Part shown: positions 2,587 through 49,909 of the stretch, in pieces
Layout: the number at the start of each line of letters is the position of its first letter
How positions within the stretch are numbered: the stretch's first letter is position 1
The notes under the pieces: model-generated
Database searches by the model: none
What the model saw: only the letters and a program-made list of their open reading frames with translations
Told to the model about the DNA's origin: nothing
Assembly (NCBI GenBank): GCA_958295715.1
Contig: OY282371.1
Span: 1,471,697 to 1,535,696 of the forward strand
Length of the DNA stretch: 64,000 bases
Source: an uncultured Dehalococcoidia bacterium
Lineage (GTDB): Bacteria > Chloroflexota > Dehalococcoidia > Lucifugimonadales > GCA-2712585
Reading direction: 5' to 3'
Made by a program: the position numbers and the translations under genes

Positions 2587-3528
2587 TTAGGTGGTTGAGG
2601 AGCGCTGTTCCGTCCAGGGGGCGCCCCGCCGGGCCACCGCGTTGAGTTGCAGCAGCAGCTTGCGCATGGCCGCCACTATGGCCACCTTGCCCGGCTTACC
2701 CCCTCGCTTCAGACGCTCGTAGAACCTCTTCAGTTCCCCCTCCCACCGGACCCCCGACAGCGCGGCCATGTACAGGGCCCGGCGCACCCACCAACGCCCC
2801 CCACGGATGCTCCGCCGCCCCTGCTGTCGCCCACTGTCCCGGGACCAGGGGGCCAGCCCCACCAGGGAGGTCAGGGCCCGCCCGTTTATCACTCCCAACT
2901 CCGGCAGGTGGGCTATCAGGACGCAGGCCGTCAGTTCTCCCACCCCACGCACGCTCTGATACAGGGCCGCCCGCTCCCCCAGACTGGCGTGGCTCGAAAG
3001 CATCCTGCCCCGCTCCCGGTCCAGTTCAGTTATCTCCTCCTCCAGCCATCCAATGTGCCGCCTCACCGACCTCTTCATCCTCTCGTTCAGCCCCTTCTCC
3101 AGCCGGTTCCGTTCCTGCACCCTCTGTTCCACCAACTGCCGGCGGCGGACCATCAGCTCTTTCAAGGCCTCAGTCTCCTCATCCAGCCCGCCGGCGCCGG
3201 TCAACTCAAAGGCCATCCCATACCGGCTCAACACCTTGGCGTCGAGTCCGTCGGTCTTGGCCTCCTTCCCCAAGGCTCGCGCCAAGGCCCGCACCCGGTT
3301 GGGGTGGGCCACTTCCACCTCCACGCCACCCTTCCTCAGCCCTTTCACCATCCCGCGCTCGTATCCACCGGTGGCCTCGCAGACCGCCCGGGAGCATTCC
3401 TGGGTCCTCAGCCATTCCAGCAGTTCCTCCATCCCCTCCGGGGTGTTGGCGAATCCCTTCACCGCCCCCTCGCACACCGACACCGCCAATTCCCTCTTGC
3501 TCACGTCTATTCCCGCCGCCACTCTCAT
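2587..3528 (-). CDS. IS110 family transposase (DEDD-type recombinase)
   Basis: 313 aa. The N-terminus, MRVAAGIDVSKRELAVSV, and the C-terminal block, LTSLVGLAPWSRDSGRQQGRRSIRGGR...RRALYMAA, are typical of IS110/IS116/IS902 transposases. Confidence 0.9.
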   Translation of the reverse strand: MRVAAGIDVSKRELAVSVCEGAVKGFANTPEGMEELLEWLRTQECSRAVCEATGGYERGMVKGLRKGGVEVEVAHPNRVRALARALGKEAKTDGLDAKVLSRYGMAFELTGAGGLDEETEALKELMVRRRQLVEQRVQERNRLEKGLNERMKRSVRRHIGWLEEEITELDRERGRMLSSHASLGERAALYQSVRGVGELTACVLIAHLPELGVINGRALTSLVGLAPWSRDSGRQQGRRSIRGGRWWVRRALYMAALSGVRWEGELKRFYERLKRGGKPGKVAIVAAMRKLLLQLNAVARRGAPWTEQRSSTT

Positions 3529-7280: not shown

Positions 7281-8100
7281 GATTCCCGCCCTCCCCATCC
7301 GTCATTCCCGCGCAGGCGGGAAGGGCGCGTGCGCCCACTTAAGTTTTGAGGGGCGTCGGCTCTGCGCGTTAGGTGTCCGTCATCCGCCGCCGGGTTACCC
7401 CACCCATCGCGCGCCCCCCCATCCGTCATTCCCGCGCAGGCGGGAATCCATCTTCGCCGGTTTTCTTCCGGCGCCATGGTTCTACTTTGACAGAACTCCA
7501 GGTTGGAGCGGGGGTAGGCCGAGTGCATGATAGCGACACAGTGGCCGTTTTGGGTTGGGGCCTTCCTGGATTCCCGCCTGCGCGGGAATGACGGAAACTG
7601 GGCGCGGAGATGGCGTGTGGGCGCTCGTCGGCGCGCAGTGGAGGCAAGAGGGGGATGGATTCCCGCCTTCGCGGGAATGACGAGAGAGGGGGCGGTGGCG
7701 CGCCCGCCGGAGATGGCGCGCGGCTGAGGGGAGGCGTCTATGTGGGGCTGGTTTTGCTGCGCGGCCTTCCTGGATTCCCGCCTTCGCGGGAATGACGGAA
7801 GGGGGAGGCAGGAATCGAAGCCCCCAGAGCAGAACCAACGCTCCGCAAAACTAAGTGGGCGCTCGTGCCCTTCCCGCCTGCGCGGGAATGACGGAAAGGG
7901 GGGCGGGACTCCATCCCCCCAGAGCAGAACCAACGCTCCGCAAAACTAAGTGGGCACGCGTGCCCTTCCCGCCTGCGCGGGAATGACGGAACGGGGGACG
8001 GGGCTCCATCCCCCCAGAGCAGAACCAACGCTCCGCAAAACTAAGTGGGCACGCGTGCCCTTCCCGCCTGCGCGGGAATGACGAGAAAGGAGGGCGGGAA
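7281..8100. repeat. Largest REP-like hairpin cluster in the window (about 8 cores, both orientations)
   Basis: Cores near 7300, 7425, 7568, 7656, 7772, 7870, 7965 and 8060. Track ORFs here translate to SFPRRRES / VIPAQAGI / RLRGNDG peptides, which are just the repeat read in different frames. Confidence 0.9.
7821..8100. repeat. Tandem array, 95-bp period, about 2.9 copies
   Basis: Unit: CCCCCAGAGCAGAACCAACGCTCCGCAAAACTAAGTGGGC.C.CGTGCCCTTCCCGCCTGCGCGGGAATGACGG... It starts at 7821, 7916 and 8011. Each unit carries two adjacent hairpins, GGGCACGCGTGCCC and TTCCCGCCTGCGCGGGAA. Confidence 0.9.
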
Positions 8101-8154
8101 TGGCGATTATTCATGGGTATCGCCGCTGGGTCAGGAAGGTATCGCCGCCAGCCC

Positions 8155-11343: not shown

Positions 11344-11383
11344 ACCGACTGAGGCAGGCGGGATGCGCGCCGCCTCCTGTTCC

Positions 11384-11590
11384 GTCATTCCCGCGTAGGC
11401 GGGAATCCATCTTTCCTCTTGGCCTTGCGCCGGGCCAAGCGTGAAACTGTGCCGCTCCCGTCCGTATGGGCGTTCCGGGTTGCCGCCTTACGGCTCTCGT
11501 CCGCAGTTATTACCCGTAATGGTTAGATGCTACGTTCAGCTGATGGGAGGAGGGGGGGATGCATCCCCGCCTCCTCTCATCCCATCACGG
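11384..11590. repeat. ~200-bp MITE-like composite repeat, copy C (one end decayed)
   Basis: A hairpin core at 11384 is followed by the internal module ...CCGTCCGTATGGGCGTTCCGGGTTGCCGCCTTACGGCTCTCGTCCGCAGTTATTACCCGTAATGG...CAGCTGATGGGAGG. This is the reverse complement of the modules at 16949-17149 and 42114-42311. Confidence 0.6.
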
Positions 11591-16311: not shown

Positions 16312-16741
16312 GGAAGGAGCCGGGGGCCTATAAGCCGGGTTCTGTATCCCGCAAGCGGGATGGCGACCATCTATCTAGCCCTTCCGGCTCCCGGAGGAAC
16401 CGGAAATCCCGGCGGGGCCGGGAACGACGTTGCCATCGGGGTCTAGCGGCCTACCCGGGGATGGGCCGGGCGCCCTTGTCCCCCTATTTGGCCTTGCTCC
16501 GGGCGGGGTTTGACCGCCGCCGCGTCGCCGCGGCCGGCCGTGAGCTCTTACCTCACGTTTTCACCCTTATCCCGCGCCCCTGAGTCAGGGGGTTGAGACG
16601 GTTCGGTTTCTGTGTCACTTTCCGTACCCGGCGCCCCGGAGGACGCCGGACCCTGGGCGTTACCCAGCGCCCTGCCCGGTGGAGCCCGGACTTTCCTCTC
16701 CGCTCAATGCGCAGCGGCCGCCCGGCCCTGCCGGCCCTTCC
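16312..16741 (-). ncRNA. rnpB: RNase P RNA, bacterial type A
   Basis: The reverse complement contains the universal blocks GAGGAAAGTCCGGGCTCC, GGGTAACGCC, GGTAAGAGC, AGCAAGGCCAAATAGGGG and ACAGAACCCGGCTTAT in the correct order. P1 can form between 5' GGAAGGGCCGG and 3' CCGGCTCCTTCC. Confidence 0.9.
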
Positions 16742-16778: not shown

Positions 16779-16948
16779 CGGAGAGGGCACTGCCCACGCC
16801 CGCCAACCCACGCTTGCCACCTCTGCTCGCCATGCCCGCCATCCATCCATCCTTTCGCCCCTTTCGCCACCCTCCCGCGGTCATTCGCGCGTATCCCCAC
16901 TCGCCCTTCCCGCCACCTCTGTTCGCCATGCCCGCCCCCTTCTTTTCC

Positions 16949-17149
16949 GTCATTCCCGCGCAGGCGGGAATCCATGCTCCCTCCTCCCATCAGATGAACG
17001 GACCATCCATCCATTACGGACAATAACTGCGGGCGAGAGCCGGAAGCCGCCAACCCGGAACGCTCATACGGACGGGAGCACGCGCCGCGGCCGCCGTTGT
17101 CACGGCGCAAGGCCAAGAGGGGATGGATTCCCGCCTGCGCGGGAATGAC
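16949..17149. repeat. ~200-bp MITE-like composite repeat, copy A (hairpin cores as terminal inverted repeats)
   Basis: GTCATTCCCGCGCAGGCGGGAATCCAT...CATCAGATGAACGGACCATCCATCCATTACGGACAATAACTGCGGGCGAGAGCCGGAAGCCGCCAACCCGGAACGCTCATACGGACGGGAGC...GGATGGATTCCCGCCTGCGCGGGAATGAC. It aligns along its full length with 42114-42311. Confidence 0.65.
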
Positions 17150-17525
17150 GAGACAGAGAGGAGGGCGGACAGGGGGCAGGAATCCCGAAGCTCCCAACGC
17201 TCTTTAAAACATAAGTGGGCGCACGCGCCCTTCCCGCCTGCGCGGGAATGACGGAAGGGGGGAACGGGAATCAAGGGTGGCGCGGGGCAGAGGACGCCCG
17301 CAAGGGACGCTCATACCCCTCTGGAATGACGCGCGGCTGAGGCGAGGCGCCTCTAAAAGAGCGTTGGTTTGGTGATGTGGGCTTCCTGGATTCCCGTTTT
17401 CACGGGAATGACGAGACAGAGGGAAAGCGGGAATGACGGAGGGGAGGGAATGACGGAAAGCGGGACGGGGCTCCATCTCCCCAGCGCAGAACCAACGCTC
17501 CGCAAAACTAAGTGGGCACGCGTGC
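17150..17525. repeat. REP-like hairpin cluster
   Basis: A core at about 17230-17253, and a T-A stem-variant core at 17388-17412 (TTCCCGTTTTCACGGGAA), plus half copies. Confidence 0.85.
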
Positions 17526-17534
17526 CCTTCCCCG

Positions 17535-37699: not shown

Positions 37700-38090
37700 T
37701 CCCCCCTCTCCCCACTCCGTCATTCCCGCGCAGGCGGGAATCCATCTTTCCCGGCTTCATGGGCGGACCCGCTGTCTGTGGTGTATGACTAACGCCAAGG
37801 GCCAGCCCCAACATCTATGAATCCGTAGGGGCGCTCTGAAGGGAATGGGGGATGGATTCCCGCCTGCGCGGGAATGACGGAAAGGGGGGGAGGGAGAAGC
37901 CAAGCTCCCAACGCAGAACCGACGCTCTTCAAAACTTAGTGGGCGCACGCGCCCTTCCCGCCTGCGCGGGAATGACGGAACCGGGGAGCCGCAGCCCCCA
38001 ACGCAGAACCAGCGCTACTCAAAACTAAGTGGGCGCACGCGCCCTTCCCGCCTGCGCGGGAATGACGGAAAGGGGGGCGGAAATGACGGA
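37700..38090. repeat. REP-like hairpin cluster
   Basis: Cores near 37708, 37854, 37955 and 38045. Confidence 0.9.
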
Positions 38091-38269: not shown

Positions 38270-39151
38270 ATGGAAACGGGAACGTGGGAACTTAAGGCCG
38301 GGCTCGCCCAGATGCTGAAGGGCGGCGTGATTATGGACGTGGTCACCGCCGAGCAGGCCAAGATCGCCGAGGACGCAGGCGCCTGCGCCGTGATGGCCCT
38401 TGAGCGGGTGCCCGCCGACATACGGGCCGCCGGGGGAGTCGCCCGCATGTCCGACCCCACCAAGATTGTGGAGATCCAGGAGGCCGTCACCATTCCCGTC
38501 ATGGCCAAGTGCCGCATTGGGCACTTCGCCGAGGCCCAGGTGCTTCAGGCCTTGGGAATCGACTATATCGACGAGTCCGAGGTGCTCACCCCCGCCGACG
38601 AAGAGCATCACGTATGGAAGCACAACTTCAAGGTCCCCTTTGTGTGCGGATGCCGCGACTTGGGAGAGGCCCTGCGGCGCATCGGCGAGGGGGCGGCCAT
38701 GATTCGCACCAAGGGCGAAGCCGGCACCGGTGACATCGTGGAGGCCGTCCGCCACAACCGGACGGTCCAGAGCGAGATACGAAAGATCATCAACATGTCC
38801 GATGACGAACTGCCCACGGAGGCCAAGCGCCTGGGCGCCGCCCTGGAACTGGTGCAGGCCGTGAAGCGGGAAGGCCGTATGCCGGTGGTCAACTTCTCCG
38901 CCGGCGGCGTGGCCACCCCCGCCGACGCCTCCCTGATGATGCAGTTGGGGGCCGACGGGGTGTTCGTAGGCTCCGGCATCTTCAAGTCCTCCAACCCCTC
39001 CATGATGGCCAAGGCGGTAGTCCAGGCGGTGACCCACTACCGGGACCCGGAAATCGTCGCCGACGTGTCCAAGGGCCTGGGCGACGCAATGCCCGGCCTT
39101 GCTGTCCGCGACATGCGGGAAGGGGAGTTGCTGGCCACCAGGGGATGGTAG
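38270..39151 (+). CDS. pdxS: Pyridoxal 5'-phosphate synthase lyase subunit
   Basis: [14 protein letters not shown]...[19 protein letters not shown]...KGEAGTG: highly conserved PdxS sequence. Confidence 0.95.
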
Positions 39152-39187
39152 CCCAAACTGAGGGCCCCATCTGAGGAGAACGCGCCG

Positions 39188-39772
39188 GTGACCGTGGGAG
39201 TAGTCGCGGTGCAGGGGGACTTCGCCGAGCATATCGCCATGCTCAACCGGTTGGGCGTCGCCACCCGTGAGGTGCGCCTACCCAAGGACTTGGAAGGAAT
39301 AGACGCCCTCATCATCCCCGGCGGCGAAAGCACCACCCTGCGACGCCTCTTCGACCTGTACGGCCTCACAGGGCCGATAACCACCCTCGCCTCCTCCGGC
39401 CTGCCCACCTGGGGCACCTGCGCCGGCATGATAATGCTCGCCGCCAAGCTCACCGACAGCCGCCCCGAACCTCTCGGCGTCATGGATATCACCGTCACCC
39501 GCAACGCCTACGGCCGGCAGGTGGACAGCTTTGAAGCCGACGTCGAGTTCCCCCAGCTAGGCGAGGATCCCTTCCACGCGATCTTCATCCGGGCGCCGGC
39601 GGTGGCCGCCATGGGGCCGGACGTCGAAGTCCTCGGCAGTCTGGAGGATGGCGCGCCGGTGGCCCTGCGGCAGGGCAGGAGGCTGGCCACCGCCTTCCAC
39701 CCGGAGCTCACCGAGGACACCCGGTTCCACCGGTACTTCTTGGAACTCGCCAACCCCTCCAACGAGGCGTGA
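39188..39772 (+). CDS. pdxT: Pyridoxal 5'-phosphate synthase glutaminase subunit
   Basis: VGVVAVQGDFAEH, catalytic GTCAGMIML and AFHPELT. GTG start. Confidence 0.9.
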   Translation: MTVGVVAVQGDFAEHIAMLNRLGVATREVRLPKDLEGIDALIIPGGESTTLRRLFDLYGLTGPITTLASSGLPTWGTCAGMIMLAAKLTDSRPEPLGVMDITVTRNAYGRQVDSFEADVEFPQLGEDPFHAIFIRAPAVAAMGPDVEVLGSLEDGAPVALRQGRRLATAFHPELTEDTRFHRYFLELANPSNEA

Positions 39773-39776
39773 CCCC

Positions 39777-41318
39777 TTGTCCACACGGGAAAAGGCGACG
39801 CAGGATGACCTGGAGCTTCTCTTTGACTGCCTCCCGCCCAGGATAGTGGCCCCCCTGCGGGAACGGGGCGGGCTGGGGCATCTGCTGGAGGTGGTCATAG
39901 ACCTGGCCAGACCCCCCGAGGCGCGCTTCCCCGACGGGGACGTTGTCCTGGATCCGGCGGAGGTCGGCCAGGAGGACCTGGACTTCGTTATCGCCCGCAT
40001 TGGGCAGTTCGGCGACGACAACCGGTCTGGCATCGAGCGCACCCTGCACCGCGTGTCGGCCATACGAAACCGCAAGGGGCGAATTCTGGGGATAACCTGC
40101 CGCGTGGGCCGGGCGGTTTTCGGGGCCATACAGACCATAGAGGACCTGGCCTTCTCCGGCAAAAACATCCTGCTGCTCGGTCGCCCCGGCGTCGGCAAGA
40201 CAACCATGCTGCGCGAGGTGGCCCGGGCCCTGGCCGACGGCGCCAAGAAGCGCGTCATCGTGGTGGACACCTCCAACGAAATCGCGGGCGACGGCGACAT
40301 CCCCCACCCGGCCATAGGGCACGCCCGCCGGATGCAGGTTCCCGCCTCTAACCTCCAGCACTCGGTGATGATAGAGGCGGTGGAAAACCACATGCCGCAG
40401 GTGATTATCATAGACGAGATGAGCACGGAGTTGGAGGCGGCGGCGGCCCGCACCATAGCCGAGCGGGGCGTTCAGCTAGTGGCCACCGCCCACGGCAACA
40501 CCCTGGACAACCTCATCCTTAACCCCACCCTCTCCGACCTGGTGGGCGGCATACAGACCGTCACCCTCGGCGACGACGAGGCGCGATACCGCGGCACTCA
40601 GAAGACGGTGTTGGAAAGGAAGGCCCCGCCCACCTTCGACGCGGTGGTGGAGATACAGAGTTGGGACACGGTGGCGGTGCACGACGGCGTGGCCAGGGTG
40701 GTGGACTCGTGGCTCCGCGGCTACTCTCCGGCCCCGGAGGTGCGGCGCATGAGGGCCGACGGCAGCATGGCGCGGGGCGTCCCGGCAGCCCCCGCCAAAG
40801 ACGACGCCCCACGGAAGGAACCCCAGCGCGCGCCCACGGTCGGACCGCCGGACGCGGAAAGCCCCACGCCCCGCGTATTCCTCTTCGGCGTGGGCAGGGA
40901 CAAGGTGGAGCAGGCCTCCGCCGACGCTGGCGTGGCCGTGGAGGTGGTCAACGACCTGCGCGACGCCGACCTGGTGCTCACCACCAAGTCCCACTACAAG
41001 CGCGGCTCCCGGGTGGCGCGCATCGCCGAGGAGTCGGGGCGGCCCATCCACGTGGTTCGCAAGAACTCCGCCGCCCAGGTGCAGCAGTTCCTCCGAGGCG
41101 CGCAGAGGCGACTGAACGGCGACCGCTCGGTGAACACCGCCCTCCAGGAGGCCCACGAGGCCGCCCAGCGCGTCCTCGACGGCGAAGACCACGTTGACCT
41201 CTCCTCCCAACGGGCCTACGTCCGGCGGCTTCAACACCTGCTGGCCCAAAAGTACAACCTAGCGTCCCTCAGCAGCGGCGCCGACCCCCACCGGCACGTG
41301 CGCCTCCTCCAGAGGTGA
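39777..41318 (+). CDS. AAA+ ATPase with C-terminal R3H domain (SpoIIIAA/Ycf45-like)
   Basis: Walker A LLGRPGVGKTT, Walker B VIIIDEM and R3H-like YVRRLQHLLA near the C-terminus. I chose the TTG at 39777, directly after the pdxT stop. The track start at 39648 overlaps pdxT. Confidence 0.7.
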   Translation: MSTREKATQDDLELLFDCLPPRIVAPLRERGGLGHLLEVVIDLARPPEARFPDGDVVLDPAEVGQEDLDFVIARIGQFGDDNRSGIERTLHRVSAIRNRKGRILGITCRVGRAVFGAIQTIEDLAFSGKNILLLGRPGVGKTTMLREVARALADGAKKRVIVVDTSNEIAGDGDIPHPAIGHARRMQVPASNLQHSVMIEAVENHMPQVIIIDEMSTELEAAAARTIAERGVQLVATAHGNTLDNLILNPTLSDLVGGIQTVTLGDDEARYRGTQKTVLERKAPPTFDAVVEIQSWDTVAVHDGVARVVDSWLRGYSPAPEVRRMRADGSMARGVPAAPAKDDAPRKEPQRAPTVGPPDAESPTPRVFLFGVGRDKVEQASADAGVAVEVVNDLRDADLVLTTKSHYKRGSRVARIAEESGRPIHVVRKNSAAQVQQFLRGAQRRLNGDRSVNTALQEAHEAAQRVLDGEDHVDLSSQRAYVRRLQHLLAQKYNLASLSSGADPHRHVRLLQR

Positions 41319-41369
41319 GGCCCTTGCGTAAGAGAGTTCTCCAAGGGCATCAGGGGTAGGAAACCCACC

Positions 41370-42035
41370 GTGGCCCTATTCATCGCCTTCGAGGGCGGGG
41401 AGCTTTCAGGCAAGTCCACCCAGTCCCGGCTCCTCTACAACCGGATGATAGCCGAGGGGAAGCGGGTCATATGGGTGCACGAGCCGGGCAGCACCCGGCT
41501 GGGCGAGTACCTGCGGGAATACCTCATCGGCGAAAACCGGATGTCCCACAAGCCGGAACTCCTCCTGTTCGCGGCGGCGCGGTCGGAGATAGTGGAGACG
41601 GTCATCAGGCCCAACCTACAAGAGGGCATCAACGTTATCGCCGACAGGTACATGCACTCCACCGTGGCCTACCAGGGCTACGGCCGGGGCATGGACTTGG
41701 GCGTCATCGACTATCTCAACGAGTTCGTGGCCGGAGACTGCGTCCCCGACCTCACTATGCTGATGGACTTGCCGGAGAAGTCCGTTATCGAGCGCGGGCA
41801 GGTCCAGACCCGCCTGGCCCTTGGAGAGGAAGCGGCCTCAGGACAGCGACGCCTTGACGACGCGTACAAGCGCAAGTTTGAGCGGATGCCCCGTGAATTC
41901 CACGCCAAGGTGCGCCGGGGCTACCTGGAACTGGCGGCCTCCCACGGGGACGGCTGGTTCGTGGTGGACGGCCGGGAGCCGCTGGAGGTCAACGCCGCCA
42001 GGATATGGGAGCGGGTCCAGCCCCTCCTCGCCTAG
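41370..42035 (+). CDS. tmk: Thymidylate kinase
   Basis: P-loop IAFEGGELSGKSTQ, the DRY motif (ADRYMHS) and a lid region. GTG start. Confidence 0.9.
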   Translation: MALFIAFEGGELSGKSTQSRLLYNRMIAEGKRVIWVHEPGSTRLGEYLREYLIGENRMSHKPELLLFAAARSEIVETVIRPNLQEGINVIADRYMHSTVAYQGYGRGMDLGVIDYLNEFVAGDCVPDLTMLMDLPEKSVIERGQVQTRLALGEEAASGQRRLDDAYKRKFERMPREFHAKVRRGYLELAASHGDGWFVVDGREPLEVNAARIWERVQPLLA

Positions 42036-42089
42036 GGTCTGAGGCATAGCCCCGCCACGGTGGACGCGGAGCGGCCCGCGCCCTCCTCC

Positions 42090-42455
42090 CGTCCATTCCC
42101 GCTTTCCCTTCTCGTCATTCCCGCGCAGGCGGGAATCCATCTTCTCGCCTCTCATCAGATGAACAGACCATCCAACCATTACGGATAATAACTGTGGGCG
42201 AGAGCCGGAAGGCGCCAACCAGGGACGCTCATACGGACGGGAGCGCGCGCCGTGGAGCGGTTGTCCCGGCGCAGTGGGGATGGGATGGATTCCCGCCTAC
42301 GCGGGAATGACGGATGGTAGGCGCGAGTGCGCGCGCTGTGGTTGCCTCGGCGCAACGGGGGCCGCGGGCGCTTGCTTTGTTTTGCGGGGTGTCGGTATAC
42401 GGCGTTAGGTTCCTGGATTCCCGCCTGCGCGGGAATGACGGAGTAGAAGGGGCGG
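42090..42455. repeat. REP-like hairpin cluster (contains MITE-like copy B)
   Basis: Cores near 42114, 42287 and 42415, plus half copies. Confidence 0.9.
42114..42311. repeat. ~200-bp MITE-like composite repeat, copy B
   Basis: It aligns end to end with 16949-17149: the same CATCAGATGAAC...CATTACGGA.AATAACTG.GGGCGAGAGCCGGAAG...GCTCATACGGACGGGAGC interior, bounded by inverted hairpin cores. Confidence 0.65.
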
Positions 42456-42599
42456 GAATGACGGGAAAGGAGGGGAGCTAGATGAGGGAATTAGGATTCC
42501 TGCCCCACCGGTTTGAAGGAAAGAAAGTTGAATACTTGTGTACACTCTATCTGTCATCCCCGAACTCGCCCCATCCGCATTCCCGCTCTCTCCCTATCC

Positions 42600-43060
42600 G
42601 TCATTCCCGTGAAAACGGGAATCCAGGAAGGCTTCGATTATGAAACAGCCCTGCGTATACATACTCGCAAGCGAGCGCAACGGAACCCTTTATGTGGGCG
42701 TAACCTCTAACTTGGCGCCGCGAGTTTGGGAGCACAAGAACGACCTGGCAGAGGGTTTCATCAAGCGGTACGGCGTCCACAGGCTGGTCTGGTTTGAGGG
42801 GCACGAAACAATGGAGGGCGCCATTACGAGGGAGAAGGCGTTGAAGCAGTGGAACAGGACATGGAAGCTCGAGTTGATTGAGGGGAGTAATCCGAAGTGG
42901 AAGGACCTATATGAGGGGTTGGGGTGAGGCGCCGCCCCGCTCCGCTACGGTGCCCGCCTCCGCCCTCCCGCCACCTAGCGGTAAGGGGAGAGCAGGGCGC
43001 GGTCTATGGGGTCAGTTCTGCGACGTGGCCTTCCTGGATTCCCGTTTTCACGGGAATGAC
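42600..43060 (+). mobile_element. Candidate TIR-bounded cassette: GIY-YIG nuclease gene flanked by exact 32-nt inverted copies of a variant REP hairpin
   Basis: 42600-42631 reads GTCATTCCCGTGAAAACGGGAATCCAGGAAGG. Its exact reverse complement is at 43029-43060, and again at 43120-43151. Confidence 0.45.
42640..42927 (+). CDS. GIY-YIG nuclease family protein (UPF0213/YhbQ-like)
   Basis: CVYILASERNGTLYVGVTSNLAPRVWEHK...REKALKQW is the GIY-(x10)-YVG / R / E pattern of small GIY-YIG proteins. The gene is AT-richer than its surroundings. Confidence 0.85.
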   Translation: MKQPCVYILASERNGTLYVGVTSNLAPRVWEHKNDLAEGFIKRYGVHRLVWFEGHETMEGAITREKALKQWNRTWKLELIEGSNPKWKDLYEGLG

Positions 43061-43255
43061 GGGAGGGGAGGCGGTGGGAATGAGTTGTTGGCGTTTCGGG
43101 TCGTGGTTCTGCGACGTGGCCTTCCTGGATTCCCGTTTTCACGGGAATGACGGGAAGGGGGACGGGGCTTCATCCTCCCAACGCAAACCCAACGCTCTTC
43201 AAACCTAAGCGGGCACGCGTGCCCTTCCCGTTTTCACGGGAATGACGGAAAGGGA
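43029..43255. repeat. REP-like hairpin cluster, T-A stem variant (TTCCCGTTTTCACGGGAA)
   Basis: Three variant cores at 43036-43060, 43127-43151 and 43225-43248. The first two lie in a 91-bp direct duplication. Confidence 0.9.
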
Positions 43256-43277
43256 AGGGATGCTAAAGAGCCGCCGG

Positions 43278-44162
43278 TTAGGAGGCGCCGCTCATGGCCT
43301 CCGCAACGGTGGCGCCTATGAGGGCAGGTGAGGGGACAACGGCGGCCCCGGCGTCACGCAGGGCCCGGTTCTTGGCCTCCGCCGCGGCGTCGGCCCCCGT
43401 TATGATGGCCCCGGCGTGTCCCATCCGCTTCCCCGGCGGCGCCGTAGCCCCGGCGATAAAGGAGACGATGGGCTTGCCGAAGCTCTCCTTGATGTACTGG
43501 GCCGCCTCCTGCTCCATACTGCCGCCTATCTCCCCGATGAGAACCACCAGGTCGGTTTCCGGGTCGTCGTTAAACATGGCCAACACGTCCACAAAGTTGG
43601 TCCCTATCAGCGGGTCGCCGCCGATGCCGACGCAGGTCGACTGGCCCAGGCCCAGGGCGGTAAGCTGGCTCACGGCCTCGTAGGTGAGGGTGCCGCTCCG
43701 GGACACCACGCCCACGCGTCCGGACATGTGGATGGCCCCCGGCATGATGCCCACCTTGCACCGGCTCCCCGGCGATATCAGCCCCGGGCAGTTGGGGCCT
43801 AATAGCCGGCTCCCGCGGCCCTCCAGATACCGCAGCGTCCGGGCCGTGTCCAGAACAGGGACCCCCTCGGCGATGCAGACTATCAACTCAACGCCCGCCT
43901 CCGCCGCCTCCAGCATGGCGTCCTGAGCGAAGGGCGCGGGCACAAACAGAAGGGACACGTTGGCCCCCGTTTCCCCAACGGCCTGCTCAACGGAGTTGAA
44001 GACCGGGACGGTGTCGTTGAAGAGGGAGCCGCCGCGCCCGGGCGTCACCCCGGCGACCACGTTGGCGCCGTACTCCATGCACCGTGCGGCGTGAAAGCTG
44101 CCTTCCCGCCCGGTGACGCCCTGCACCAGTATCCGAGAGTCCCCATTAACCAAAATGCTCAT
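43278..44162 (-). CDS. sucD: Succinate--CoA ligase subunit alpha
   Basis: [21 protein letters not shown]...SRSGTLTYE...GHAGAII: canonical SucD, including the phosphohistidine loop. Confidence 0.95.
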
Positions 44163-44191
44163 GTCCTAACTAGCTCCCCAGCCGTCCCCGT

Positions 44192-45349
44192 CTAGCGCGG
44201 GAGGGCCTTCAGTTTCTCTTCAACCTCAAGCAGGGTGGAGGCAAAGGCCACGTCCAGGCCGGAACCGGCCAGTATCTCCCTGCCCTCCTCAACGTTAGTC
44301 CCCTGCATACGGACCATCAACGGGACGCCGGCCCCCTTCTCGCCATAGGCCGCCAGAATGCCGCGGGCCACTATGTCGCTGCGCAGGATGCCCCCAAAAA
44401 TGTTGACCAGAATGCTCTTGACGCTGGGGTCCGCCAGCATGATGTTCACGGCCCGGGCCACCTTGCCCTCGTCGGCGCTGCCGCCCACGTCTAGGAAGTT
44501 GGCGGGAAGCCTGCCCGCGCCCTGCACCAAGTCCATGGTCGCCATGGCCAGGCCCGCGCCGTTGACAAGGCACCCCACGGAGCCGCCCAGCTTCACGTAG
44601 GATATCCCGGCCTTAGACGCCTCAACCTCCAAGGGGGACTCCTGCTCCGGGTCGCCCATGGCAGCCAGTTCGGGATGCCGGAAGAGGGCGTCGTCCTCCA
44701 AGTCTATCTTGGCGTCCACGGCGACCAGGCCCCCATCGCCGGAGACGACCAGGGGGTTTATCTCCACCAGGGTCAGGTCCTTTTCCATGAACAGGGTGTA
44801 GATGGAGGTCATTATCCGGGCGGCGGCCCCCAACTGCTTCCCCTCCAGTCCCAACCCGCGGCCCACCCTGCGGGCCTGGAAGGGTTGGAACCCGACGGCC
44901 ACGTCGACGCCCTCGTTGATGATGCTCTCAGGACGGGTGGCGGCCACCTCCTCTATCTCCACGCCGCCGGAGGCGCTGGCGATGAACATAGGCCCGCCGG
45001 AGGCGCGGTCGACGGTGACGGCCAGGTACATCTCGCCGCTCACGTCGGCGGGTTCCTCCACCAACAGCCTCCGCACCGGGGCGCCCTCAGGGCCCGTTTG
45101 GACCGTAACCAGGCGGCCTCCAAGGAGCGAGGCGGCGAATTCGCGGGCCTCCTGGGGCGAGTCGACCAGCTTCACGCCGCCGGCCTTGCCCCTCCCCCCG
45201 GCGTAGACCTGGGCCTTCACCACCGCCCTGCCGCCCAGATCGCGGCAGATGACCTCCGCCTCGGCGGGGGTGGCGGCCACCCGGCCCGGGGGCACGGGAA
45301 CTCCGTACTTGGAAAGCAGTTCCTTGGACTGGTACTCGTGAATCTTTAT
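44192..45349 (-). CDS. sucC: Succinate--CoA ligase subunit beta (apparent AUA start)
   Basis: [13 protein letters not shown] and the rest are canonical. The universally conserved N-terminus (M)[19 protein letters not shown] lies upstream of the track GTG start (45295). It is open only back to a TAG at 45355-45353. The codon at the Met1 position is ATA (45349-45347), with GGAGG 6 nt upstream. Confidence 0.9.
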
Positions 45350-45445
45350 GGTCTACCTCCCAGGGCGAAGAGCCGGGGCCTATTCTAACACAGGGCCGCC
45401 TCCCATGCAGAACACGGGCGCCTTCACCCCCGCCCCACCCATACA

Positions 45446-45474
45446 TTGACTAGCCCCGCCATCTTGAGTACATT
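45446..45474 (+). promoter_or_regulatory. Sigma-70-type promoter for the dehydrogenase gene
   Basis: TTGACT (45446-45451), a 17-nt spacer, then TACATT (45469-45474). Confidence 0.45.
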
Positions 45475-45516
45475 TGCCGGGTTCCCACCAGCCAACACCC
45501 CCGCTAAGGAGAGACC

Positions 45517-46428
45517 ATGAATGGCAAGGAGACTGTCGCGTTCATAGGCCTGGGCATTATGGGCCTGCCCATGAGCCTAAACCTCATCAAGGCCGGATAC
45601 CCCCTGGCCGTTTACAACAGGACTCGCAGCAAGACCGAGGCGTTGGCGGAGCAGGGAGCGCGGGTCGCCGGCTCCCCCGCCGAGGCGGCGCGGGGCGCCT
45701 CAACCGTTATCGTCATGGTCAGCGACTCCCCGGACGTGGAGGAGGTAGTCCTGGGCAAGGGCGGGGTGATAGAGGGCGTCCAGGAGGGGGCCGTGGTCAT
45801 AGACATGAGCACGATTTCGCCCTCCGTGACCCGCCGGGTGGGGGCCAGGCTGGCCGGAAGGGGGGCAGCCATGCTGGACGCCCCCGTTAGCGGCAGCTCC
45901 TGGGCCGCCGCCGACGGGACCCTCTCCATCATGGTGGGCGGAGAGCCGGAGGTATTCGAACGCTCCCTCCCCGTCCTGGAGGCCATGGGCAAGCGGATTA
46001 TTCACATAGGCCCGAGCGGCATGGGGCAGGTGGCCAAGCTGGTCAACCAGGTGATGGTCGCCGGCACCCTGGCCGCCGTGTGCGAGGGGCTTCTCCTCGG
46101 CGCCAAGGCGGGCGTTGACTTGGACAAGGTGTTCCAGGCCGTCACCGGCGGCGCCGCCAACTCCTGGCAGCTTGAGAACCTGGGCTCCCGCATCCTCAAG
46201 CGCGACTTCGACCCCGGGTTCTCCGTTAAGCTGATGCTGAAGGACCAGCGCCTCATCAACCAAGCCGCCGAGGAGATGGAACTGCCCATGCCCGCGTCGG
46301 CCGTGGCCCGCCAGTTCTTCTACCTGCTGGGACAGCGAGGGCTGGGCGAGGACGGCACCCAGTCTTACATCAAGGGACTGGAGGAGATGGCGGGAGTCAT
46401 AGTGGGCGGCTCCGCGGAGCCTTCATAG
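45517..46428 (+). CDS. NAD(P)-dependent 3-hydroxyisobutyrate / 2-hydroxy-3-oxopropionate dehydrogenase family oxidoreductase
   Basis: Rossmann motif VAFIGLGIMGLPMSLNL, DAPVSG and GxGQxxKxxNQ (GMGQVAKLVNQ). AAGGAG upstream. Confidence 0.8.
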   Translation: MNGKETVAFIGLGIMGLPMSLNLIKAGYPLAVYNRTRSKTEALAEQGARVAGSPAEAARGASTVIVMVSDSPDVEEVVLGKGGVIEGVQEGAVVIDMSTISPSVTRRVGARLAGRGAAMLDAPVSGSSWAAADGTLSIMVGGEPEVFERSLPVLEAMGKRIIHIGPSGMGQVAKLVNQVMVAGTLAAVCEGLLLGAKAGVDLDKVFQAVTGGAANSWQLENLGSRILKRDFDPGFSVKLMLKDQRLINQAAEEMELPMPASAVARQFFYLLGQRGLGEDGTQSYIKGLEEMAGVIVGGSAEPS

Positions 46429-46432
46429 GCCG

Positions 46433-46978
46433 CTACGCCTGGGACCCACCGCCTCGGAGCCACCGCTCCAAGGCGACGGCGTCCCTGGGAAAGGCCAGTT
46501 CCGGAAGGCCGCCCGGCGAGAAGAACCCCACCTCCGACACCTCCTGCCCCGGGGCGGCCTCGCCGCTCACAACGCGGCCGTGATAGACCGCCAGGACCAC
46601 CGGGTTCCCCCGCTCGGAAAAGGCCCCGACCAGGCCCAGAATCTCCACCGTCACGCCCGTCTCCTCGAGGACCTCACGAGCCGCGGCCTCCTCCAGGGCC
46701 TCGCCCCTGTCCACGTAGCCGCCGGGGAGGCTCCACAGCCCGACGCCCGGCTCAATGGCGCGCCGCACCATGAGGGCCTTGCCGCCCCGCTCCACAATCA
46801 CCGCGGCGGCCAGCTTGGGGCCGTAGTAGATAACCCTGCCGCAGCGGGAACACGCCGGCCTTTCGGCGTTGTGGACCCACCGCAGGGCCAACGGCCCGCC
46901 GCATCCGGGACAGTAACGGTCTTCCTGACTCATCCTCAAAAGATACCACATCGCCACCGCGTCGCGACGGAGGGTCAC
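46433..46978 (-). CDS. NUDIX hydrolase with N-terminal zinc ribbon
   Basis: CPGCGG...CSRCG ribbon, then the Nudix box GGYVDRGEALEEAAAREVLEETGV. Start is uncertain (46978, 46951 or 46933). Confidence 0.75.
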   Translation of the reverse strand: MTLRRDAVAMWYLLRMSQEDRYCPGCGGPLALRWVHNAERPACSRCGRVIYYGPKLAAAVIVERGGKALMVRRAIEPGVGLWSLPGGYVDRGEALEEAAAREVLEETGVTVEILGLVGAFSERGNPVVLAVYHGRVVSGEAAPGQEVSEVGFFSPGGLPELAFPRDAVALERWLRGGGSQA

Positions 46979-46987
46979 GGGGGAAAA

Positions 46988-47016
46988 TTGCCCTGCCCCG
47001 CCGCTCTGGTATAAAG
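46988..47016 (+). promoter_or_regulatory. Possible promoter giving a near-leaderless mRNA
   Basis: TTGCCC, 16-17 nt, then TATAAA(G). The -10 ends about 11 nt before the ATG at 47027, and there is no SD in between. Confidence 0.35.
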
Positions 47017-47026
47017 TAGCGTCGGC

Positions 47027-49909
47027 ATGAAAAAGACCACCAAAGAGACCAGGGAACTAGAGGCGGAACTCCGCAAGCTGGTGTCCGGCGAGGTGCGGTT
47101 CGACGCCTTCTCCAAGGTCATCTACAGCACAGACGCCAGCATCTACCAGATGGAGCCGGTGGGCGTGGTCATCCCCCGTGACGCAGAGGACGTTTTGGCC
47201 GTGGTGGACGCGGCCCACCGGTGGGGCGTCCCGGTCCTGCCCCGGGGCGGCGGCACCAGCCTCGCGGGGCAGACGGTGAACCACGCCATAGTCATCGACT
47301 TCTCTAAGTACATGAACGGCGTCTTGGAGGTGAACCCGGAGGAGAGGTGGGCCTGGACCCAGCCCGGCGTGACGCTGGACCAACTCAACCGGCGGGTCGT
47401 GTCCCACGGACTCCGGTACGCCCCCGACCCCTCCACGGCCAACCGCGCCACCGTGGGCGGCGGCATCGGCAACAACTCCTGCGGCTCCCACTCCGTCCTC
47501 TACGGCAAGACGGGAGACCACGTTATCGAGCTCAACGTCGCCCTCTCCGACGGCAGCCAGGCCCACTTCCGAACCCTAGACGACGCCGAGTTGGAGGCCA
47601 AGCTGCGCGGCCAGGGGCTGGAGTCCGGCATCTACAAAGGCGTCCTCCGGATAGCCGAGGAGAACCGGGAGGAAACCCATGCCCGCTACCCGTCGATAAT
47701 GCGGCGGGTCAGCGGCTACAACCTGGACCAGTTCCCCAAGGGCGAGCCGGTGAACCTCAGCCGGATGGTGGTGGGGTCCGAGGGGACCCTTAGCGTGATC
47801 ACCAAGGCCAAGGTTAACCTGGTCACGCGGCCCAAGACCACCGCCCTGGCCATCGCCCACTTCCGCCGGCTGGACGAGGCCTGCGAGGCGACCACGGCCG
47901 TTCTGGAGCACGGCCCCGCCGCGGTGGAGTTGGTGGGCGAAATGCTGCTGGACCGCACCCGCCAATCCCTGGGCTTCGCGCGCAACATGACCTTCATCAA
48001 CGGCAACCCCGGGGCCGTTCTGGTGGTGGAGTTCGACGGCGAGTCCGAGCTTGAGGTCTCCTCCAAGGCGGCCCGGCTGAAGGACGACCTGGCGAGGCGG
48101 GGCCTAGGCTACGACACAATCATCCTGTTAGACAGGGCCGCCCAGGCCAACGTGTGGGCCGTCCGCAAGGCGGGCGTGGGCCTGCTGATGGGCGTGCGGG
48201 GCGACGCCAAACCCATTCCCTTCGTGGAGGACACGGCGGTGGACCCGGAGCGGCTGGGGGAGTTCGTGCGCCGCTTCGACAGCATCGTCAAGGGCCACGG
48301 GACCGAGGCCGGATACTACGGCCACGCCAGCGTCGGATGCCTACACATCCGTCCTCTAGTGAACCTCAAGACCCAGGAGGGCCTGGACGCCATGGTGTCC
48401 ATCGCCGACGAGATAGGCGACCTGGTGAAGGAGTTCGGCGGTTCTCTGAGCGGCGAGCACGGCGACGGCATCGTGCGGGGCGTATGGACTGAGAAGATGT
48501 TCGGCCCCGCCATCTACCGCGCCTTCCAACAGGTCAAGGAGACCTTCGACCCCCGGGGCATTATGAACCCCGGCAAGATTATCGACTGCCCGCCCATGAC
48601 CGAGAACCTGCGATACGGCCCCGGCTACAAGGCCCTTGCCCTTGACACCCGCTTGGACTTTTCGGCGGAGGATGGGTTTGGCGGCGCGGTGGACCTGTGC
48701 AACGGGATGGGGGCCTGCCGCAAGGACGACGGCGTTATGTGCCCCTCATACATGGTCACCCGCGAGGAGGAGCACTCCACCCGAGGCCGCGCCAACCTGC
48801 TGCGCTCCGTCCTGGCAGGCGCCCTGCCGCCGGACACCCTCCGGAGCCGACGCCTTCACGACGCCCTTGACCTGTGCCTTGAGTGCAAGGGTTGCAAGGG
48901 GGAGTGCCCCTCCACGGTGGACATGGCCAAGCTCAAGTACGAGTTCCTTCACCAGTACAACAGGGCCAACGGAACGCCCCTAAGAAGCCGGCTCTTCGCC
49001 AACATCGCCCGGCTCAACCGCCTGGGCTGCCGGCTGGCCCCCCTGTCCAACCTGGCCGCCGGTCTGCCCGGCCTAAGGCCGCTCCTGCACAAGTTCCTGG
49101 GCATTCACCGCAAGCGCCCCCTCCCCGCCTTCGCCCGGCCCACCCTCCCGGCCTGGTTTAGGGGCAGGAAACCCCTGGGCGGCGGCGCGCGGGGGCCGGT
49201 GGTCCTCTTCAACGACACCTTTATGAACTACAACGCGCCGGGCGTCGGCGTCGCGGCGGTGGAGGTCCTGGAAAAGGCGGGATTCCAGGTCATCCTGGCC
49301 GGCGGACGCTGCTGCGGCAGACCCATGATTTCCAAGGGGCTGTTGGACGAGGCCGCGGCCAACGCCCGGTTCAACGTCGACCTCCTAGCCCCCCACGTCC
49401 GGCGGGGAACGCCCGTGGTGGGATGCGAACCCAGCTGCCTCCTCACCCTCCGCGACGAGTACCCGGACCTGCTCCAAGACGACGCCTCCAAGGAGGTGGC
49501 CGGCGGCAGCTTCCTCATCGACGAGTTCCTGGACAACCTCCGGCGGGAAGGGCGGCTTGACCTGGAGTTCTCCGACCTGTCCAAAAAGGTCCTGTTCCAC
49601 GGCCACTGCCACCAGAAGGCCCTGGTGGGAACGGCGGCGTCAATGCGCGTCCTGGGCCTTCCGCCCAACTACGAGGTGGAGGAGACGGGGGCCGGCTGCT
49701 GCGGCATGGCCGGGGCCTTCGGCTTCGAGCGGGAGCACTACGACGTGTCCATGGCCATAGGGCGGGAGCGGCTCTTCCCCCTGGTGGAAGCCAAAGGCCC
49801 CGGCTGGGAGATAGCCGTCACGGGGATATCCTGCCGCCAGCAGGTGGAGCACGGGGCCGGCCGCCGGCCGCGCCACCTCATCGAAACCCTCCGAGACGCG
49901 CTGGCGTAA
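47027..49909 (+). CDS. FAD-binding oxidase fused to Fe-S/CCG domains (YdiJ-like 2-hydroxyacid dehydrogenase)
   Basis: 960 aa. N-terminal PCMH-type FAD domain (PRGGGTSLAGQ), a central CLECKGCKGECP ferredoxin-like motif, and C-terminal CCG repeats (CCGRP.., GCCGMAGAFG). Confidence 0.85.
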   Translation: MKKTTKETRELEAELRKLVSGEVRFDAFSKVIYSTDASIYQMEPVGVVIPRDAEDVLAVVDAAHRWGVPVLPRGGGTSLAGQTVNHAIVIDFSKYMNGVLEVNPEERWAWTQPGVTLDQLNRRVVSHGLRYAPDPSTANRATVGGGIGNNSCGSHSVLYGKTGDHVIELNVALSDGSQAHFRTLDDAELEAKLRGQGLESGIYKGVLRIAEENREETHARYPSIMRRVSGYNLDQFPKGEPVNLSRMVVGSEGTLSVITKAKVNLVTRPKTTALAIAHFRRLDEACEATTAVLEHGPAAVELVGEMLLDRTRQSLGFARNMTFINGNPGAVLVVEFDGESELEVSSKAARLKDDLARRGLGYDTIILLDRAAQANVWAVRKAGVGLLMGVRGDAKPIPFVEDTAVDPERLGEFVRRFDSIVKGHGTEAGYYGHASVGCLHIRPLVNLKTQEGLDAMVSIADEIGDLVKEFGGSLSGEHGDGIVRGVWTEKMFGPAIYRAFQQVKETFDPRGIMNPGKIIDCPPMTENLRYGPGYKALALDTRLDFSAEDGFGGAVDLCNGMGACRKDDGVMCPSYMVTREEEHSTRGRANLLRSVLAGALPPDTLRSRRLHDALDLCLECKGCKGECPSTVDMAKLKYEFLHQYNRANGTPLRSRLFANIARLNRLGCRLAPLSNLAAGLPGLRPLLHKFLGIHRKRPLPAFARPTLPAWFRGRKPLGGGARGPVVLFNDTFMNYNAPGVGVAAVEVLEKAGFQVILAGGRCCGRPMISKGLLDEAAANARFNVDLLAPHVRRGTPVVGCEPSCLLTLRDEYPDLLQDDASKEVAGGSFLIDEFLDNLRREGRLDLEFSDLSKKVLFHGHCHQKALVGTAASMRVLGLPPNYEVEETGAGCCGMAGAFGFEREHYDVSMAIGRERLFPLVEAKGPGWEIAVTGISCRQQVEHGAGRRPRHLIETLRDALA

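Follow-up and report, generated by a model that had tools for sequence, protein, structure and literature searches.

The 64-kb stretch of DNA analysed here, from an uncultured Dehalococcoidia bacterium (contig OY282371.1) and referred to throughout as the window, carries between the convergent genes tmk and sucD a small gene for a GIY-YIG nuclease, ssn, that is bracketed by inverted copies of a hairpin repeat. We consider it highly probable (roughly 0.88) that this is an Ssn/NTS locus, in which a nuclease of the Ssn family is accompanied by its hairpins, the Neisseria Transformation Sequence (NTS), and that the locus was inserted as a block at the tmk-sucD junction. The Ssn family has been described by Chenal et al. 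2025 (Nat Commun 16:2388, PMC11893778) as site-specific nucleases of single-stranded DNA (ssDNA) with hairpin repeats of the NTS type or of the degenerate Ssn-related motif (SRM). The pairing of a GIY-YIG enzyme with a hairpin family is already published and is not a new class. A first-pass annotation of this DNA had been aware of no described partnership between a GIY-YIG nuclease and repetitive extragenic palindromic (REP) sequences; that statement is out of date, since the 2025 paper describes the pairing as well as the comparison with REP sequences and bacterial interspersed mosaic elements (BIMEs). The paper was located by a full-text literature search for the repeat sequence itself, while literature searches for GIY-YIG together with REP or with REP-associated tyrosine transposases (RAYTs) returned nothing relevant.

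The locus places a canonical Neisseria-type NTS and an Ssn protein of 63% identity in a Chloroflexota-like genome, at a very high repeat density. Beyond the published account (PMC11893778), it offers an empty site in a syntenic relative, hairpin clusters that without exception run (+)n(-)m, and gene-less hairpin doublets whose similarity stops at the reported position of the Ssn cut. These three observations bear on how NTS repeats spread and on the role of Ssn outside Neisseria, and they make the hypothesis of a mobile element directly testable.

The nuclease and its published relatives

In the published system the NTS is defined as CGTCATTCCCGCGMAVGCGGGAATCYRG, which contains the older dRS3 repeat, and NTS/SRM motifs are spatially tied across phyla to a single gene, ssnA (cd10448). 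Its product recognises the NTS hairpin solely as ssDNA, which it binds with a Kd of 4.5 nM. Cleavage is confined to one strand, at a site a few nucleotides to the 5' side of the motif, and double-stranded DNA (dsDNA) and RNA are ignored. The substitutions Y6A, Y17A and E64A leave binding intact and abolish cleavage, and the N. meningitidis enzyme also loses its activity when the stem sequence is altered with the structure retained. In N. meningitidis, SsnA lowers transformation by NTS-containing DNA. The authors noted in their discussion that NTS-ssnA-NTS resembles an insertion sequence (IS), drawing comparisons with IS200/IS605, REP and BIME, and left the role of Ssn outside Neisseria open (PMC11893778).

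The open reading frame (ORF) in the window encodes 95 amino acids, and its sole Pfam match is to the GIY-YIG domain (PF01541; E=2e-15, residues 4-77). The protein is 63% identical over 89 amino acids to the 94-amino-acid SsnA orthologue of N. gonorrhoeae (E=3e-43). Residues Y6, Y17 and E64 of the gonococcal orthologue agree with the numbering of the residues mutated in N. meningitidis SsnA, and these catalytic positions align with Y7, Y18 and E65 of the window protein. Together with R28 and H32, the latter three are invariant in an alignment of 11 diverse homologues from Chloroflexota, Neisseria, cyanobacteria, Bacteroidota, Nitrospinota and Nitrosomonas, and the 36 invariant columns of this alignment indicate strong constraint. 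The family is large, with more than 7,990 clusters that are typically 66-85% identical to the window protein. From the sequence and the literature we predict with high confidence that the protein is an NTS-specific ssDNA endonuclease. The record from which the gonococcal orthologue was taken (PLSDB NZ_CP119140.1) is labelled as a plasmid, although at 2.17 Mb it is the size of a chromosome, and NZ_CP119142.1 is likewise mislabelled.

Two other kinds of enzyme were considered for the window protein. An HUH/Y1 enzyme, such as a RAYT or the TnpA of IS200/IS605, is excluded because the only Pfam match is to GIY-YIG. A GIY-YIG homing endonuclease is excluded as well, since the protein consists of the catalytic domain only, scores 19.4 against a 56-bit cutoff with TIGR01453 and has no homologue in the phage records searched. 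Homing endonucleases of the I-TevI type share the GIY-YIG catalytic core, but they act on dsDNA and have an additional DNA-binding domain, whereas the window protein is the catalytic domain alone. The UPF0213/YhbQ proteins also share this core; the UPF0213 structure 1ZG2 is only marginally similar to the window protein (E=0.15), consistent with a shared superfamily and a different clade, and no closer homologue was found in the PDB.

Organization of the ssn locus

A 32-mer, GTCATTCCCGTGAAAACGGGAATCCAGGAAGG, lies at 42600-42631 on the (+) strand and has exact reverse complements at 43029-43060 and 43120-43151, where none would be expected (100 dinucleotide shuffles). The ATG of the ssn gene, an intact single-domain GIY-YIG ORF at 42640-42927 (+), follows 8 nt past the 3' end of this arm. 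The first-pass annotation had reported this arrangement, and its coordinates were confirmed. The inverted repeat is in fact longer than 32 nt, reaching 55 nt at 87% identity (42578-42632 with 43028-43082), or 44 nt at 93%. The two exact downstream arms are not independent, because both belong to a 91-nt tandem duplication with 60-nt units that are 95% identical (43015-43074 and 43106-43165).

The upstream hairpin, CGTCATTCCCGTGAAAACGGGAATCCAG (42599-42626, +), combines a stem of 8 bp, closed by a T-A pair, with a GAAA loop, and fits the SRM pattern. It lies within an extended arm at 42578-42632 and its 3' end is 13 nt before the ssn ATG; its two mismatches to the NTS consensus are the compensatory pair. 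As ssDNA it folds with -9.8 kcal/mol (z=-3.9). Downstream there are two inverted T-A copies, one in each unit of the tandem repeat (43034-43061 and 43125-43152, both -), followed by a repeat module (43153-43260, -) that holds a truncated T-A copy at 43221-43249 and belongs to a module family also present elsewhere in the window. The proposal that GGAAGG in the upstream arm serves as the Shine-Dalgarno sequence of ssn is plausible at this locus, but the motif is not conserved upstream of homologues, forms the tail of an extended repeat subfamily that is also found away from start codons, and can pair with the 5' flank. That flank, the pyrimidine-rich TCCCTATCC within 42591-42632, lengthens the hairpin when so paired, and pyrimidine-rich 5' flanks occur on nearly all hairpin copies in the window.

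The gene is present in a single copy in the window. Its GC content is 55.2%, compared with 64.9% for tmk, 67.8% for sucD and 65.2% for the window, so that it is indeed AT-richer than its surroundings, as had been noticed earlier. The entire intergenic block between tmk and sucD comprises 1,242 nt (42036-43277) and contains seven full NTS copies, one truncated copy and ssn. In addition to the copies around the gene it includes a gene-less doublet at 42109-42312, made up of an NTS (+) at 42113-42140, a conserved interior of 144 nt and an NTS (-) at 42285-42312, and, lying between this doublet and the ssn cassette, a further canonical NTS (42413-42440, -) that matches the consensus exactly.

The hairpin family in the window

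There are 29 full hairpins of the form ATTCCC-N8-GGGAAT in the window. Every one of them conforms to the SRM pattern as published, where shuffled sequence would give 0.86. The NTS consensus is matched with no more than one mismatch by 22 of them, while the copies flanking the gene have the two mismatches that form the compensatory T-A pair. This T-A closing-pair variant (ATTCCCGT GAAA ACGGGAAT) is rare, as the first-pass annotation had claimed, being found in four of the 29 full hairpins (42603, 43038, 43129 and 17390), three of which flank ssn, and in the truncated copy. The 8-bp stem is 99.6% paired across 29 loci and six of its eight pairs show changes on both sides, a result matched in none of 500 shuffles; folded as ssDNA, the NTS copies give z-scores of about -4.

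The repeats are almost wholly intergenic and occur in clusters. All ten clusters in the window (2202-50595) are ordered with (+) copies first and (-) copies second, an order that none of 100,000 orientation permutations reached, and this (+)n(-)m polarity is kept beside convergent, tandem and divergent genes alike. The CGTCAT ends of the hairpins therefore face outward, where SsnA reportedly cuts.

The gene-less doublet of about 205 bp has three copies in the window, at 42109-42312, at 16945-17150 (87%) and, inverted and partly decayed, at 11366-11572 (82%). Similarity among them ends at the outer NTS ends, where Ssn reportedly cuts. The 144-nt interior was absent from every other locus that we fetched. 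The doublet may be an element resembling a REPIN (a REP doublet) or a miniature inverted-repeat transposable element (MITE), or it may encode a small RNA. Tandem modules of about 95 nt with a truncated NTS (...GCCCTTCCCG...CGGGAATGACGG) were also found, at 7771-8102, 17446-17532, 37853-38085 and 43104-43260, and again at the locus of the closest homologue (L083).

Association of ssn with the hairpins in other genomes

We compared 80 homologous loci, one per species, from Chloroflexota, Pseudomonadota, Nitrospinota, Cyanobacteriota, Bacteroidota and others; counts based on the SRM refer to the 73 of these that were usable. At 41 of the 80 loci there is a perfect (+) hairpin with its stem terminating 16-18 nt short of the ATG, and at 42 a (-) copy follows no more than 200 nt past the stop codon. 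An SRM adjoins ssn at 55 of the usable loci, the upstream ones being oriented (+) in 33 cases and (-) in six. The gap between SRM and ATG clusters at 11-13 nt, in keeping with the 13 nt in the window. Beside the gene there is about one SRM per 112 nt, compared with one per 27.8 kb at distances of more than 600 nt, a difference of about 250-fold. This density, the fixed distance to the ATG across phyla and the published binding and cleavage by SsnA (PMC11893778) bear out the suggestion of the first-pass annotation that a specific GIY-YIG/hairpin partnership with a REP/RAYT-like layout exists. Its further suggestion that Ssn mobilises the repeats, in a role equivalent to that of a RAYT, is retained as a candidate role.

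These comparisons leave little room for the idea that the hairpins lie next to ssn by chance, as terminators or regulatory elements unrelated to Ssn: although there are 29 hairpins in 64 kb, other genes are bracketed too (for example 2587-3528) and terminators would be expected at a site between convergent genes, this reading is extremely improbable and effectively refuted by the cross-genome enrichment, since hairpin-poor genomes still place hairpins exactly at the ssn boundaries and at a fixed distance from the ATG, SsnA binds and cleaves the hairpin (PMC11893778), cluster polarity is independent of gene orientation, and the hairpins in the window lack T-tracts, no terminator having been detected at them in a terminator scan.

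The stem subtypes of the upstream and downstream hairpins differ between genomes and agree within 15 of 23 loci, against 5.4 expected from permutations, which may simply reflect the dominant subtype of each genome. The closest homologue of the window protein, at 85% identity (L083), has the common C-G variant on its flanks and T-A copies elsewhere. The notion that the gene is flanked by its own hairpin variant thus fails as a rule, and a clade-specific T-A cognate site was rejected on the same ground. The match between variant and gene in the window is more readily ascribed to shared ancestry of the two cassette ends, or to gene conversion. A T-A closing pair with a GAAA loop was also seen beside ssn in a Dehalococcoidia metagenome-assembled genome (MAG) (L001, 3289-3470; ATTCCGGT GAAA, three copies), and the T-A variant beside ssn in Leptolyngbya PCC 6406 (L019, 3341-3474; ATTCCCGT GAAA, two copies), so the variant recurs in distant hosts. 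At another locus, in a Chloroflexota MAG (L046, 2607-3315), two ssn genes stand in tandem, each after a hairpin of the ATTGCGGC type.

An empty site and probable horizontal spread

The nearest relative found (L082; ENA ERZ25071064 contig_4), whose Tmk is 62% identical to that of the window, shares with window positions 38270-49909 eight consecutive orthologues in the same order, at 62-86% amino acid identity. In this relative tmk and sucD abut, and its GC content is 58% compared with 65% in the window. Its 12.7 kb contain no ssn, no SRM match and no perfect hairpin with an 8-bp stem and a 4-nt loop; gene and repeats are missing alike, so that the refuting case named by the first-pass annotation, an orthologue kept in place by a relative without the repeats, is not what L082 shows. 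In view of this empty tmk-sucD junction, the 1,242-nt spacer of the window is a lineage-specific block that looks inserted. Relative to L082, the hairpin family appears to have invaded only the lineage of the window.

Neither tmk nor sucD lies beside ssn at any of the 80 other loci, where synteny was assessed by protein searches, tblastx having given compositional noise only. The best non-self match of the window Ssn is 85% identical, compared with 62% for Tmk. The low GC content of ssn and its very high conservation across phyla point to horizontal spread of the gene.

Two ssn cassettes were found on one contig of a Sulfuritalea MAG (JADJQA010000076.1; L023 and L032). They are 18.7 kb apart and 95.5% identical over about 420 bp, with sharp ends, and are bounded by 58-nt inverted repeats, each consisting of a 26-nt outer part and an NTS, with direct repeats of 4-5 nt outside. 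The outer 22-nt motif, GGCTARCGNATGCACRCATCT, also ends many unrelated metagenome repeats, often at contig ends. A target-site duplication made by Ssn is not creditable for this pair, because the direct repeats lie outside the widely shared motif. Searches of 50,697 phage records revealed no Ssn homologue, and in a plasmid collection 33 of the 34 records with an Ssn match were typed as non-mobilizable; several of these records are multi-megabase, and two from Neisseria are the size of chromosomes.

Several points weigh against the reading of this region as an inserted Ssn/NTS locus. The insertion is deduced from one fairly distant relative, and a deletion in the L082 lineage is formally possible. 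Membership in cd10448 is deduced from the Pfam match and from homology to the gonococcal orthologue. The T-A copies around the gene may not be substrates, given the stem-sequence requirement of N. meningitidis SsnA. The upstream (+) copy is missing in L083, and in N. gonorrhoeae (L081; NZ_CP119140.1, 1364-1886) the nearest NTS is (-) upstream and (+) downstream of ssnA, so that the convergent (+)ssn(-) geometry, although it predominates among the 80 loci, is not universal.

Possible mechanism of spread

By homology to N. meningitidis SsnA, the window Ssn would bind the NTS hairpin only when it is single-stranded, and only on the CGTCAT...CCAG strand, and would hydrolyse it in a Mg-dependent reaction, a few nucleotides to the 5' side of the motif. 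With a (+) copy upstream and (-) copies downstream, the cuts are predicted to lie outside the unit, the top strand being cut close to 42595 and the bottom strand close to 43065 and 43156. The ssn gene probably arrived within a hairpin-bounded block inserted between tmk and sucD, after which the block grew by tandem duplication of hairpin-containing modules, a history shown by comparison. Nicks made by Ssn could stimulate host recombination or repair in a homing-like manner, leading to the copying of NTS-bounded units. A route through host recombination or repair is the most plausible because Ssn has no known joining activity. That Ssn nicks, by stimulating such copying, have spread both the hairpins and the cassette is a tentative proposal, to which we assign less than an even chance.

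A mobile cassette or a host function

An alternative that overlaps the reading of the region as an inserted Ssn/NTS locus, and differs from it solely in taking mobility as the function, is that NTS-ssn-NTS is an autonomous, IS-like cassette in which Ssn replaces the transposase, the doublets and arrays being non-autonomous derivatives similar to REPINs or MITEs. This idea, also raised by the authors of PMC11893778, may be correct, though we would not put it at even odds. It agrees with the empty site in L082, the different context of ssn in all 80 other species, its low GC content and a cross-phylum conservation far beyond that of a housekeeping gene. The order of the ten clusters, held irrespective of gene orientation, the three doublets with similarity ending at the outer NTS ends and the two nearly identical, sharp-ended Sulfuritalea cassettes favour it as well. 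Against it, the window has a single copy of ssn, no target-site duplication is attributable to Ssn, we saw no excision or insertion polymorphism, phage records yielded no homologues and the plasmid matches are nearly all non-mobilizable. The chemistry also speaks against simple transposition. GIY-YIG enzymes are hydrolytic nucleases that form no covalent intermediate and are not known to have a strand-joining step.

A more specific version, in which NTS-ssn-NTS is an autonomous element of a new mechanistic class that makes opposite-strand nicks outside its inverted hairpins and is copied to new sites by host repair or recombination, is rather unlikely on present evidence. If it were true, the gene-less doublets and arrays would have been seeded by this element, the REP/RAYT-REPIN lifestyle would have been reinvented independently, and the near-identity of protein and hairpin from Neisseria to Chloroflexota would be explained.

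The main alternative to nick-stimulated copying, and about as likely, is that Ssn has been domesticated as a host factor that cuts NTS-bearing ssDNA, incoming or exposed, and so modulates recombination or horizontal transfer near NTS-flanked genes, as proposed for Neisseria. The repeats would then be kept for this modulation, and the position of copies beside ssn would either be a relic of evolution or serve autoregulation. The lowered transformation of N. meningitidis by NTS-containing DNA in the presence of SsnA and the intact, strongly constrained gene fit a host function, and autoregulation, or a signal for expression that is shared, would be in keeping with the fixed gap of 11-13 nt between the (+) NTS and the ATG. 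However, the lineage of the window is not known to be naturally competent, the role of Ssn outside Neisseria is explicitly open in the published account (PMC11893778), and the empty site and shifting contexts argue against an old, stable host gene. Domestication and nick-stimulated copying are not mutually exclusive.

A function in defence, in which Ssn would attack ssDNA phages or conjugating plasmids at hairpins that resemble the NTS, is improbable. Its target is hugely over-represented in the host genome rather than excluded from it, no significant PADLOC match was obtained (the best, partial, had E=0.003), and the neighbours are not defence genes, the flanks being tmk and sucCD.

Relationship to known repeat systems

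The window system most resembles the Ssn/NTS system of N. meningitidis, with which it shares a single-domain GIY-YIG protein of about 95 amino acids, the same catalytic residues and, in most copies, the exact hairpin of the NTS consensus. In both, oriented hairpins stand on either side of the gene and the repeats are almost wholly intergenic and clustered; between the window protein and the gonococcal orthologue the identity is 63%. The host differs, belonging to a Chloroflexota-like MAG lineage and not to the Pseudomonadota, the copies flanking the window gene carry the T-A closing pair, and the order is (+)ssn(-) where N. gonorrhoeae has (-)ssnA(+). The density of the repeats is also different, at 29 per 64 kb, which if uniform would extrapolate to about 1,000 per 2.35 Mb. 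With dRS3 and the neisserial intergenic mosaic elements (NIMEs) the window has in common an identical ATTCCC-N8-GGGAAT core and intergenic arrays in which hairpins alternate with repeat modules of 50-150 nt, but its spacer modules are unrelated in sequence and genome-specific. In Neisseria, dRS3 is also a target for the integration of phages and IS110-type elements.

The likeness to REP/RAYT-REPIN systems is in architecture only: a nuclease gene in single copy stands between inverted versions of a genome-filling hairpin, gene-less inverted doublets are present, and the hairpin would be recognised in ssDNA with an asymmetric flank setting its orientation. The enzyme, however, is a hydrolytic GIY-YIG nuclease and not an HUH Y1 transposase with a covalent 5'-phosphotyrosine intermediate, and the hairpins in the window lack the GTAG motif. 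IS200/IS605 elements are likewise small, with subterminal hairpins that are recognised as ssDNA and cleaved beside the hairpin. Their ends are not inverted and both cuts are on the same strand, whereas the window ends are inverted with predicted cuts on opposite strands, and the catalytic fold is different, there being no Y1 domain in the window protein.

Other features of the window

Rfam gave no match at the hairpins or the cassette, at either gathering or permissive thresholds. A "COG2827 RNA motif" was dropped as a candidate, having left no trace in the Rfam matches or in the literature search. The sole real Rfam match in the window is a class A RNase P RNA at 16317-16733 (-), with a score of 205.8 bits, and an NTS cluster (16948-17413) lies directly beside it.

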